Below are positions 8,102-16,647 of a stretch of DNA of 64,000 bases, in pieces (the first letter of the stretch is position 1; each line of letters begins with the position of its first letter). This DNA comes from Myxococcales bacterium (GTDB taxonomy: Bacteria > Myxococcota_A > Polyangia > Polyangiales > DASUME01): the NCBI GenBank assembly GCA_047601445.1, contig JASGJH010000001.1:3424001-3488000 (forward strand), given 5' to 3'. The notes under the pieces are model-generated. The model made no database searches, was not told the DNA's origin, and saw nothing but the letters and a program-made list of their open reading frames with translations. A program made the position numbers and the translations under genes.

Positions 8102-8152
8102 TGCCCAGGCAGTGTGCGAGTGAACCGTGACTCCGACAAGCGAGCATGCTTC

Positions 8153-8331
8153 TGCACGGGGAGGTCACGCGACCTCCCCGCCCGTCGCGGTTGTTGCACG
8201 GGGAGGTCACGCGACCTCCCCGCCCGTCGCGGCTGTTGCACGGGGAGGTCACGCGACCTCCCCGCCCGTCGCGGCTGTTGCACGGGGAGGTCACGCGACC
8301 TCCCCGCCCGTCGCGGCAAAGCCGCGACGGG
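8153..8331. repeat. Tandem array, 4 x 42 bp palindromic unit, ending in an 11-bp hairpin
   Basis: Unit TGCACGGGGAGGTCACGCGACCTCCCCGCCCGTCGCGGYTGT starts at 8153, 8195, 8237 and 8279. Each unit holds a 10-bp stem CGGGGAGGTC/GACCTCCCCG. The last copy runs into CCCGTCGCGGC-AAA-GCCGCGACGGG. Confidence 0.95.
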
Positions 8332-8332
8332 A

Positions 8333-8525
8333 CCCACCCCACCGCGAGGTTCGCTTCGCTCACTGCGACGCGACCCACCCCACCGCGAGGTTCGCTTCGC
8401 TCACTGCGACGCGACCCACCCCACCGCGAGGTTCGCTTCGCTCACTGCGACGCGACCATCCCACCGCGAGGTTCGCTTCGCTCACTGCGACGCGATCCGC
8501 TCCACCGCGGGTTCGCTTCGTTCAC
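8333..8525. repeat. Tandem array, about 5 x 41 bp unit
   Basis: CCCACCCCACCGCGAGGTTCGCTTCGCTCACTGCGACGCGA at 8333, 8374 and 8415 (exact), 8456 (40-bp variant) and 8496 (degenerate, partial). Confidence 0.95.
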
Positions 8526-13836: not shown

Positions 13837-14886
13837 GTGAGCACTCAGGAGCGGGCTCTCCTGCGTGAGCTCGTGGCCGCTTATCAGCGGATCAACGAGA
13901 GCTTGTTCAAGTCTGCCCTGCGCTCTCCCCAGTTCGCGCTGAGCGACGCCGACTCGTTTCTGGGACGCTGGTTCCCGAGTTCGCGCACGCTCGAGCTATC
14001 GCGTAAGTTCGTCCTGAGCCACGACTGGACCGTGGTACTCGAGGTACTCAAGCACGAGATGGCGCACCAGTTCGTGCACGAGGTGTTGCGGGAGCACGAG
14101 ACGCCCCACGGCCCGGCCTTTCGCGATGTGTGCGCGCGCCTCGGCATCGACGAGCGCTCGGGCGGGGTGCCGCAGGCGGCTCAATCGACCGAGCAGAAAC
14201 GCCTGCTCGAGCGCGTGCACAAGTTGCTCGCTCTCGCCCAGAGCGACAATCAACACGAGGCCGAAGCAGCAGCCGCAGCGGCGCAGCGCCTGATGCTGCG
14301 CCACAACCTGGACCTTGCCGAGAGCAGCACCCCCACGCAGTACTCGTTTCGCCAGCTCGGACGCGTGACCGGCCGGGTCAGCGAGTGGGAGCGTCGGCTC
14401 GGCAACGTGCTGCGGGATCACTTCTTCGTGGAGATCATCTGGGTGCCGGCCTATGTGCCCGAGCAAGCCAAGCGCGGCAGCGTGATGGAAGCCATCGGCA
14501 GCCCAGAAAACCTCGAGCTAGCTGCCTATGTGTACGACTTTCTGAAGCACACCGCGGAGCGTCTCTGGCTTGCCCACCAACGCGACAACGAGATCGCGAA
14601 CAATCGTGATCGGCAGCCCTACTATGCCGGCGTCATGAGCGGGTTCGCGCAGAAGCTGGCGCAGGAGGCCAAGCGGCATCGGGCCGAAGGGCTCATCTGG
14701 GTGCCTCAAACCAAGCTCGGTGAGTACACACGCAAGCGGCACCCCTACCTGCGCACGATCCATCATCAGGGGCACCGGCGCCGCGACGCCTTCGCCGAAG
14801 GTCAGCGGGCGGGACGCGACGTGGTGCTCCACCGGGGCATCACGGGCCAGAACAGCCGCGGCGAACGTCGTCTCTTGCGCGGCTGA
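13837..14886 (+). CDS. SprT-like zinc metalloprotease domain plus DUF2786 domain protein
   Basis: LKHEMAHQ...HGPAF zincin motif; KLLALAQSDNQHEAEAAAAAAQRLM is typical of DUF2786. Confidence 0.85.
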   Translation: MSTQERALLRELVAAYQRINESLFKSALRSPQFALSDADSFLGRWFPSSRTLELSRKFVLSHDWTVVLEVLKHEMAHQFVHEVLREHETPHGPAFRDVCARLGIDERSGGVPQAAQSTEQKRLLERVHKLLALAQSDNQHEAEAAAAAAQRLMLRHNLDLAESSTPTQYSFRQLGRVTGRVSEWERRLGNVLRDHFFVEIIWVPAYVPEQAKRGSVMEAIGSPENLELAAYVYDFLKHTAERLWLAHQRDNEIANNRDRQPYYAGVMSGFAQKLAQEAKRHRAEGLIWVPQTKLGEYTRKRHPYLRTIHHQGHRRRDAFAEGQRAGRDVVLHRGITGQNSRGERRLLRG

Positions 14887-14981
14887 CGTCTGCGCGGGGA
14901 CATCGCTGCGCGAACAGATGAGAGCGGCAGATGAGAGCGGGCACCGGCACGGACGGCGCCTTGCTGCGGCACTTGGTCAGC

Positions 14982-16004
14982 TCACTGCCGGGGCTTTTGA
15001 GCCAGGAAGAACGCCATCGGCGTGAACACGCCGGCTTCGCCCGAGGCCACCAACGCATCGGCGCCACGATTGAGGAAGTCGCTGATCTCGGCCGTGCCCT
15101 TGGGCGCGATGCGCGCTGTCTCCAGGGTACGCGTGAGGGCCTTCACCATGACCTTGCCGGCCGACGTGCGGCGCAGGCCGGTGTTGGAGAGCTCCTTGCC
15201 AGCCAGGCTCAGGTACCAGGGCACCTCGGGATCACCTTCGATGGCCTTGTCTTGAGCATCGAGCACGTCGAAGCCAGCCGCGCGGAAGCAGTTTCCGGTC
15301 TCCTCGAGCGTCCAGATGTCGGGCAAGCCATTGCCCTCTTCGATGTCACCCTTCATGCGCACGTGGGCCGGGTTGTTGGCGTCGTAGCTGCCGGTGAGGC
15401 ACCACTCGTAGACCGCGATCCTGCCGCCGGGCTTGAGCACGCGGAAGAGCTCCCGGAACAACGCGGTCTTGTCGGGCGCGTGGCAGGTCGCCTCGAAGGC
15501 GTAGACGTGGTCGAACGAAGCGTCGGGCTCCGGGATCTGCATGAAGTCTGCTTCGAGCAGCGAGCACTGGCCATCGAGACGCGCGGTCACGTTGTACTGA
15601 CGGGCCTTCTTCACCTGGTAGGCGTTGTTGTTCACGCCCACGACGGAGGCGCCGCTGAAGCGGGCCATCTCGCGCATGGGACCGCCGACACCGCAGCCCA
15701 CGTCGAGCGCGCGCTGGCCGGCCCCGAGGCCCAGACGCAGCGCGACGTAGTGCTGGTGGCGCTTGATGGAGGCCTCGAAGGGCTCGCCGCGGTAGCGCGG
15801 GGCGAAGTGGAAGGACTCGCCCCAACCGCGCTCGTAGATGTCGGTGACGAGATCGTAGTAGCCGCGCACCATGTCCGTGTAGCTATGCTTGCGAGCGTCC
15901 ACGCTGCCTCCACCGTTGTCGTGGAAAGCGCGGTATTGCCGGACGTCGTCGCGAATATCGCCGCGCGCGTGCCCCGCACGGGTCTCAACCGATGCTGCTG
16001 CCAT
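14982..16004 (-). CDS. smt: Sterol C-24 methyltransferase (ERG6/SMT family)
   Basis: YYDLVTDIYERGWGESFHFAP, LDVGCGVGGPMRE, GVNNNAYQ, YAFEATCHAP, LKPGG...YEW, IEEGNGLP, and Sterol_MT_C-like tail LVASGEAGVFTPM. Confidence 0.9.
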   Translation of the reverse strand: MAAASVETRAGHARGDIRDDVRQYRAFHDNGGGSVDARKHSYTDMVRGYYDLVTDIYERGWGESFHFAPRYRGEPFEASIKRHQHYVALRLGLGAGQRALDVGCGVGGPMREMARFSGASVVGVNNNAYQVKKARQYNVTARLDGQCSLLEADFMQIPEPDASFDHVYAFEATCHAPDKTALFRELFRVLKPGGRIAVYEWCLTGSYDANNPAHVRMKGDIEEGNGLPDIWTLEETGNCFRAAGFDVLDAQDKAIEGDPEVPWYLSLAGKELSNTGLRRTSAGKVMVKALTRTLETARIAPKGTAEISDFLNRGADALVASGEAGVFTPMAFFLAQKPRQ

Positions 16005-16308
16005 GGCGTGTTGTCCTCCGGTTCACGGTGTACTTGCTCGAACTGGGTCAAACAAGCGCCAACTCTCGGGAATTTGGACGATACGGAGCTCTGTATCAGC
16101 GTCGGATTTGCGTCGATCCTGGAGTGATCGCATGAATCCGTCTTCGACGCCTTGGAGCACAAAATCGTGACACGTAGTAACGATGCAGCGACCGACGCGA
16201 GCGAGCCTGAGCGATAAGAGGATCGAAGCAAGAGATGGAAATCTCGCAGCAACAAGGACCTGCTCCGCAGCTGGTGCACCCCCGGATGGGAACGCAGCGA
16301 GCTGAGCC

Positions 16309-16647
16309 ATGACGCTGAGGCAGGTCGCGCTCCTAGTCGCACTGGGCGTCTTCTTGTGGATCGTGTTTCGCGCCGGACGCGAGCGTGAGCTGTTCGTGCT
16401 GGCCGTGCGCTCGGGCAAGACCCGCTTGGTGCGCGGCAAGCTGCCGCCTTCGCTGTTCGCGACCCTCAGCGATGTGATGCAAGCGGCCAAGGTCGAGCGC
16501 GCGACCGTACGCGTGTGGCGAGAACAGGACCACGCGCGGCTCGAGGCGAGTGGGCTCAACGAGTGGGTGCTGCAACGCGCACGCAACGTCCTCGGAACCT
16601 ATCCGCTGGCCAAGCTACTCAGCGCCCAGACACTGCGTGCGAAATGA
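16309..16647 (+). CDS. Small membrane protein, DUF3634-like
   Basis: N-terminal TM helix, LFVLAVRSGK...RG.LP, C-terminal QRARNV. Confidence 0.65.
   Translation: MTLRQVALLVALGVFLWIVFRAGRERELFVLAVRSGKTRLVRGKLPPSLFATLSDVMQAAKVERATVRVWREQDHARLEASGLNEWVLQRARNVLGTYPLAKLLSAQTLRAK

Follow-up and report, generated by a model that had tools for sequence, protein, structure and literature searches.

The smt locus and its family membership

The window analysed here, a stretch of 64,000 nucleotides, lies on the single 9,502,601-base contig of genome G000 (98.7% complete, 5.4% contamination), whose host is a Polyangiales-type myxobacterium of uncultured type. On the minus strand, positions 14982–16004 hold smt, an open reading frame for a protein of 340 residues (P0001) with an ATG start and no internal stop. 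A Shine-Dalgarno-like GGAGG can be read on the same strand at 16015–16019, 10 bases 5' of the ATG, and neither a sigma-70-type promoter nor a terminator above chance was found in 14700–16400. The gene stands alone, both flanking genes being on the opposite strand: a convergent 3' neighbour encoding a SprT-like/DUF2786/DUF7168 protein (13837–14886, plus strand) and a divergent 5' neighbour encoding a DUF3634 protein (16309–16647, plus strand). Neither is a sterol gene, and both mark a conserved locus, the SprT-like gene being common to three of the seven SMT-bearing sister genomes of the genus (G004, G006 and G002) and the DUF3634 gene to two (G007 and G004); G001 differs downstream of smt, and several sister contigs end near it. 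GC at the three codon positions of smt is 0.66, 0.47 and 0.87, with third-position GC (GC3) of 0.80–0.89 in the five adjoining genes. The bacterial setting claimed by the first-pass annotation is thus borne out by the uninterrupted frame, the host-like codon GC and the neighbours common to sister genomes. The three closest named relatives of smt come from Myxococcales/Polyangiales MAGs (78–85% identity); two further close matches (71–74%) carry proteobacterial titles, one of them (L029) being the same locus as in sister genome G006. Elsewhere in the window, short tandem repeats at about 8130–8500, between NAD synthase and transglutaminase-like genes, give repeated peptides in several spurious open reading frames.

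All SMT signature motifs quoted in the first-pass annotation are found in the translation of P0001. On the minus strand, the sterol-binding Region I spans residues 57–67 (yeast 81–91; 15804–15836) and includes Tyr81 and Arg83 in yeast numbering, the latter at 15828–15830. The SAM-binding Region II follows at residues 101–109 (yeast 125–133; 15678–15704), then Region III at residues 168–177 (15474–15503), where Glu171 corresponds to yeast Glu195, and Region IV at residues 191–201 (15402–15434), where Gly193 corresponds to yeast Gly217. Asn225, at 15330–15332, occupies yeast position 249. The Pfam check proposed earlier returned the C-terminal Sterol_MT_C domain (PF08498; residues 275–338, 14991–15182) at 75.9 bits against a cut-off of 21.7, beside Methyltransf_11 at 80.7 bits (cut-off 21.2). 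This is the only PF08498 match in the entire host genome, and the 14 control genomes have none.

Brown & Welander 2025 describe 25 residues conserved across all SMTs that were found active (bioRxiv 10.64898/2025.12.19.695621). P0001 keeps all 25, with 19 of them, from yeast position 74 to 268, at a single constant offset; the mapping uses the motifs and spacing given in the preprint, not the yeast sequence itself, and on these columns a fungal Erg6 has 25 and rice SMT1 has 24. Fifteen other methyltransferase open reading frames of G000, taken by BLASTP, have 5–12. P0001 is collinear with eukaryotic SMTs over 310–322 residues, at 45% identity over 310 residues with Cladosporium halotolerans Erg6 (285 BLAST bits) and 48% over 322 residues with the rice cycloartenol-C-24-methyltransferase 1-like protein (SMT1; 342 BLAST bits). 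Fungal Erg6 and plant SMT1 are of the EC 2.1.1.41 type; unlike them, P0001 has Arg for Tyr at position 83, is encoded by a bacterial gene and belongs to a separate bacterial group (SH-aLRT 99).

The closest structures could suggest a different enzyme, since the top PDB matches are of the RebM/MitM type, the best non-sterol methyltransferase reaching 90.7 HMMER bits, no true SMT was found among the PDB matches of P0001, and none of the 25 best NCBIfam models, out of 35, passed its cut-off. P0001 would then be a methyltransferase for tocopherol, phospholipid or a RebM/MitM-like natural product that merely resembles SMT. However, no SMT structure had been reported as of the preprint (bioRxiv 10.64898/2025.12.19.695621), which explains the PDB result, and Sterol_MT_C, the full set of 25 residues and 45–48% identity to eukaryotic SMTs speak against a non-sterol enzyme in a comparison whose tree left out tocopherol methyltransferases. 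A eukaryotic contaminant is excluded by the single 9.5-Mb contig, the host-like GC3 and the neighbours common to sister genomes. Taken together, we hold a non-sterol or contaminant origin to be very improbable; judged by its sequence, 14982–16004 on the minus strand is a genuine sterol C-24 methyltransferase gene, correctly named SMT.

The phylogeny that had been asked of this gene places P0001 among bacterial SMTs, in a tree that includes named plant and fungal SMTs but leaves out tocopherol methyltransferases. It was a quick IQ-TREE run with SH-aLRT support only, rooted on a distant SMT-like clade, and its 113 rows comprise 13 homologues picked from 120, 34 locus-derived sequences, 59 near-full-length representatives picked from 150 and 7 outgroup rows. 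P0001 and its close relatives form a clade of 12 rows (SH-aLRT 100), which is part of a mostly myxobacterial group of 21 rows (97). This group also includes the SMT of an epoxidase-SdmA-cyclase-smt-smt cluster, 60% identical to P0001. That group lies within a 51-row group (99) whose named rows are all bacterial, and the plant and fungal rows stand apart; most rows from the representative library carry no taxon name, as a look-up of 20 of them yielded a taxon for 6 clusters, and deeper branches are weakly supported.

G000 also encodes a second, distant SMT-like methyltransferase, P0121 (G000:C1:2963565-2964572, minus strand; L070:8565-9572), which is 28% identical to P0001, has 12 of the 25 residues, lacks Sterol_MT_C and a GWG Region I, and counts ascomycete and dinoflagellate proteins among its homologues. 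Its gene faces a Rieske/KshA_C oxygenase gene in convergent orientation, an arrangement that G007 repeats, making two of the ten genomes of the genus. In gene pairing only, this recalls the nematode pathway that combines a C4-methyltransferase with the DAF-36 Rieske enzyme (PMC6997595).

Region I, position 249 and the predicted product

The first-pass annotation had drawn attention to Arg in Region I where eukaryotic enzymes have an aromatic residue. The observation itself stands, as four of four named eukaryotic SMTs checked have Tyr at yeast position 83, and the position is aromatic (Tyr, Trp or Phe) in 92 of the 105 family-wide representatives, out of 150, with a readable Region I. Arg is not, however, peculiar to P0001, being the commonest residue among its 120 closest homologues (Arg 55, Phe 17, Tyr 13, Lys 10, His 10, Gln 8); for this reason the reading of Arg83 as a unique defect was rejected. 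Arg83 is, on these alignments, a trait of this SMT clade. It takes one aromatic residue out of Region I, which is thought to stabilise the carbocation (bioRxiv 10.64898/2025.12.19.695621). Position 83 is outside the preprint's list of 25 residues, and so we do not treat an aromatic side chain there as defining. We found no published test of Arg at this position in a search that was thin on subscription journals, and an assayed enzyme with Arg83 may be present in the preprint's supplementary alignment. The Arg83 clade offers a natural test of whether the Region I aromatic matters.

Bacteroidota SMT homologues (L048, L049, L051, L052, L057 and L058) also have Arg or Lys at position 83. Because their rows fall outside the myxobacterial clade and, with moderate support, close to plant and fungal rows, a basic residue at this position may have arisen twice.

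Position 249 is informative on the length of the side chain. In the mutagenesis of the preprint, Gly249 was necessary for 24-isopropyl products, and the G249N variant of the propylating enzyme Chl_SMT lost C30 and kept C29 products (bioRxiv 10.64898/2025.12.19.695621). P0001, like rice SMT1, has Asn at 249. It has in common with the propylating Chl_SMT and Ap_sym_SMT (bioRxiv 10.64898/2025.12.19.695621) all 25 conserved residues, and differs from them in every feature linked to propylation, namely Gly249 and Phe at 81 and/or 83, where it has Asn249, Tyr81 and Arg83. Since Asn249 is combined with the lack of Phe at 81 and 83, the predicted product is a C28 sterol, possibly C29, and not C30, and P0001 is predicted not to be a candidate for the 24-isopropyl C30 chain known as the ‘sponge biomarker’.

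A scattered sterol pathway in the host genome

The first-pass annotation had noted neither an oxidosqualene cyclase nor a squalene epoxidase in the window, and this is correct: the only epoxidase match and the true cyclase of the genome are about 1.36 Mb away. The genome-wide search that it had proposed found homologues of all three enzymes sought, squalene epoxidase, oxidosqualene cyclase and CYP51. A single 1206-residue protein (C1:4796598-4800218, plus strand; L007:6599-10219) joins a squalene epoxidase, a short cyclase-like piece and a squalene synthase. Such epoxidase-synthase fusions also occur in G051, G190 and G007, and a published MAG has a single gene id for both SQS and SQMO (PMC10070321, Supplementary Data 1). 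Directly after the fusion, at C1:4800236-4802260, lies the oxidosqualene cyclase, which scores 629 bits against human lanosterol synthase, has the DCTAE motif and carries Tyr381, Asn449 and Val453 in human numbering. G000 thereby has both marks of a de novo sterol producer, a squalene epoxidase and an oxidosqualene cyclase with DCTAE.

The remaining genes are dispersed. At C1:9.105-9.113 Mb, a P450 with CYP51 as its top PDB matches (496 bits) has a Rieske oxygenase gene and a gene of the 3-beta-HSD family close by; we read these two as probable SdmA and SdmB, because the Rieske protein is 51–55% identical to Rieske genes within the sterol clusters of two other genomes. The sole ERG4/ERG24-family gene (C1:3.798 Mb) is closest to a methanotroph C-14 reductase (377 bits), two ERG2-like genes lie at C1:8.187 and 7.760 Mb, and an HMG-CoA reductase homologue lies at C1:6.19 Mb. 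A 536-residue FAD protein of the DHCR24/DWF1 family (C1:3089094-3090704) is a Delta24-sterol reductase homologue (Atlas 0.98–0.99; 46–51% identity to named eukaryotic homologues), and with this gene in G000 the idea that SMT replaces all C-24 reduction was dropped. Searches of G000 found no EBP-family isomerase and no second ERG4/ERG24-family gene as C-7 reductase; none of its eight fatty-acid-hydroxylase-family genes could be assigned as a C-5 desaturase, and a single query found no Bsr-like reductase in G000 or in nine sister genomes. None of the genes used in this reconstruction is split. A further P450 (C1:1589891-1591199) and a GGR-family flavoprotein gene (C1:2961298-2962234) are each split over two frames, reflecting sequencing frameshifts or pseudogenes. 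A 731-codon frame at G000:C1:7376818-7379013 (plus strand) combines an N-terminal nucleotide-binding part, isopentenyltransferase-like by eye, with a P450 domain.

The sterol genes of G000 thus occupy seven or more separate places. No sterol gene is clustered with smt in G000 or in the corresponding stretches of seven sister genomes, several of which end close to smt; because the pathway genes are all scattered, the isolation of smt is normal for this genome.

These genes outline a possible route. The cyclase would make lanosterol, the product that accompanied Val453 in every bacterium examined by Wei et al. (PMC4919349). Lanosterol would lose its C-14 methyl and one or two methyls at C-4, SdmAB homologues being known to differ in the number of methyls that they remove (PMC10202945). 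SMT, which methylates via a carbocation (bioRxiv 10.64898/2025.12.19.695621; PMC6997595), would transfer the SAM methyl to the 24(25) double bond and so form a 24-methylene sterol (C28), perhaps followed by a second methylation to C29 and not by a 24-isopropyl C30 chain. The reductase would either compete for the 24(25) bond, giving C27 products, or reduce the methylated product to 24-methyl sterols; within its family, DHCR24 and SSR2 act on the 24(25) bond and DWF1/SSR1 on the 24(28) bond (PMC6112714). As no separate C-7 reductase gene was found, end products unsaturated at ring position 7 or 8 seem more likely than cholesterol-like ones, and we predict C28 sterols of this ring-unsaturated kind, with C27 sterols possibly among the products.

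Whether the SMT takes part in such a route depends on its activity, which is likely but not certain, because 4 of 11 inactive SMTs keep every conserved residue (bioRxiv 10.64898/2025.12.19.695621). With Arg at 83 in place of the usual aromatic, and with a DHCR24-like enzyme that could reduce the 24(25) bond before the SMT acts, P0001 might be a true SMT homologue that is inactive, silent or very weak, leaving only C27 sterols made through the reductase. We regard this as improbable, as the frame is intact and the SMT is retained at 70–84% identity, with all 25 residues, in seven of nine sister genomes, unlike a dead gene. An active, SAM-dependent sterol 24-C-methyltransferase acting on sterols that the bacterium itself makes is the reading that we consider probable.

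Distribution and meaning of the SMT in Polyangiales

The nine sister genomes of the genus (72–99% complete) largely repeat this gene set, with SMT in 7, cyclase in 8, CYP51 in 8, an ERG4/ERG24-family gene in 9, an SdmA-like gene in 7, a DHCR24-like gene in 6 and a Bsr-like gene in none. With G000, all eight SMT-bearing genomes of the genus have a cyclase. A sample of 401 genomes of the order contains 81 with SMT, 129 with cyclase, 56 with a Bsr-like gene and 56 with a DHCR24-like gene; these tallies derive from single-protein queries with one to five candidates scored per genome, across many fragmented MAGs and kin that are not independent, and include an unpublished genome (G122), on which no conclusion depends by itself. 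Because smt occurs in seven of nine sister genomes and 81 of 401 in the order, it is inherited and not recently acquired, a stable trait of the whole genus. A recent eukaryotic origin by horizontal transfer was rejected on the host-like codon GC, the common neighbours and the bacterial clade. The cyclase of the genus is 30–40% identical to the cyclases of most genomes of families f8 and f22 and 44–58% identical to those of a different set, so that the histories of cyclase and SMT seem to differ.

Within the order sample, SMT occurs in 63 of 88 genomes of family f8, 1 of 32 of f22 and 6 of 191 of f17, and the Bsr-like reductase in 29 of 32 of f22 and 1 of 88 of f8. SMT is found in 56 of the 129 genomes with a cyclase and a Bsr-like gene in 53; the two occur together in 4, and 24 have neither. 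In this Polyangiales sample, therefore, the two are nearly mutually exclusive and the split follows families; the Bsr query was a GGR-family gene in the G051 sterol cluster, taken as Bsr from family and position alone. We found no literature report on this exclusion or on the genus, in a search that left subscription journals mostly outside, and the main text of the Bsr paper contains no mention of SMT (PMC12004948).

The first-pass annotation had left open whether the enzyme modifies self-made or scavenged sterols. The evidence favours the former, since G000 itself carries the pathway genes and a cyclase accompanies SMT in all eight SMT-bearing genomes of the genus; an active SMT that mainly remodels sterols from prey or surroundings is unlikely here, although some evidence does lean that way. 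In G000, smt is distant from the biosynthetic genes, a Chlamydiae MAG with an SMT and no pathway has been published (PMC10070321), and 25 of the 81 SMT-bearing genomes of the order have no cyclase match at E<=1e-80. These include G072 and G095, which are 97–98% complete in 5–6 contigs, so that in family f8 some SMT-bearing bacteria seem to lack sterol synthesis of their own. Against this, G000 and its seven SMT-bearing sisters all have a cyclase, and with the entire pathway scattered, a lone smt says nothing special.

A DHCR24-like gene is present in 42 of the 81 SMT-bearing genomes, and in 12 of these 42, all of genus g8, it lies within 1.3 kb of smt on the same contig; the g8 proteins share only about 40% identity with the reductase of G000. 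In these 12 genomes (for example G220:C402, G230:C96 and G095:C4), the distance between smt and the DHCR24-like gene is about 1.2 kb in 11 cases and 92 bases in the twelfth, and the gene between them is Rieske-like by eye in L124. Several of the 12 have no cyclase match, which suggests that the g8 pair is a module for remodelling scavenged sterols.

The earlier view of bacterial SMTs as rare is overstated, given homologues in 81 of 401 genomes of the order, 63 of 88 in one family, and myxobacterial SMTs already published and assayed: Brown, Olagunju, Giner & Welander 2023 report 20 of 24 bacterial SMTs working in vitro, two of them from a Sandaracinus MAG, name myxobacteria as the best candidates for de novo alkylated sterols, and state that side-chain alkylation is still to be confirmed in a myxobacterial isolate (PMC10070321). 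One of the two Sandaracinus enzymes ethylates and the other methylates (bioRxiv 10.64898/2025.12.19.695621). That marine Sandaracinus sp. MAG resembles G000 in its Polyangiales host, its SMT family and motifs, SQS and SQMO in one gene, and OSC, CYP51, ERG24, ERG2 and SdmAB (PMC10070321). It differs in having a tandem SMT pair, where G000 has a single SMT away from the cyclase, and G000 for its part has Arg83 and a DHCR24-like gene, no DHCR24 being listed for the MAG in Supplementary Data 1; one SMT cluster in those data also lists a DHCR24 homologue (PMC10070321). The tandem pair of G190, in a cluster of the same design and used here as a stand-in for the published sequences, is 60% and 50% identical to P0001. 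Myxococcales and Sandaracinus sequences also appear in the SMT tree of Hoshino & Gaucher 2021, and MYH95782.1 and OMH80093.1, both from the ingroup of that tree, are among the search matches of P0001 (PMC8237579). These authors provide a category for bacteria with pathway genes but without synteny, and SMT is sparse among myxobacteria in their account, whereas it is common in two families of the present GTDB sample (PMC8237579). The addition to this body of work is modest: the complete predicted route in a single-contig genome, the genus-wide conservation of SMT and the family-level near-exclusion of SMT and Bsr-like genes.

More tentatively, the genus may make saturated 24-methyl sterols de novo, of ergostane skeleton and perhaps 4-methyl or 24-ethyl, by SMT followed by 24(28) reduction through the DHCR24/DWF1-family enzyme, as plant DWF1/SSR1 does. 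The Polyangiales side chain might then have two family-level fates, Bsr reduction to the cholesterol type, as in the cultured strains examined to date, or alkylation by SMT in families f1, f8 and f11. We think this proposal possible rather than probable; the counts among the 129 cyclase genomes and the DHCR24-like gene in about half of the SMT-bearing ones, 12 times within 1.3 kb of smt, support it.

C-24 alkylated steranes are read as eukaryotic fossils. G000 is relevant here as a single-contig genome whose gene content predicts a full route to C28 sterols, and its genus is a target for enrichment and lipid analysis. It has no bearing on the sponge biomarker, since P0001 lacks the residue that a 24-isopropyl product requires. 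Should the 24-methyl route and the two fates prove true, free-living myxobacteria would be a broad, overlooked source of C28 steranes.
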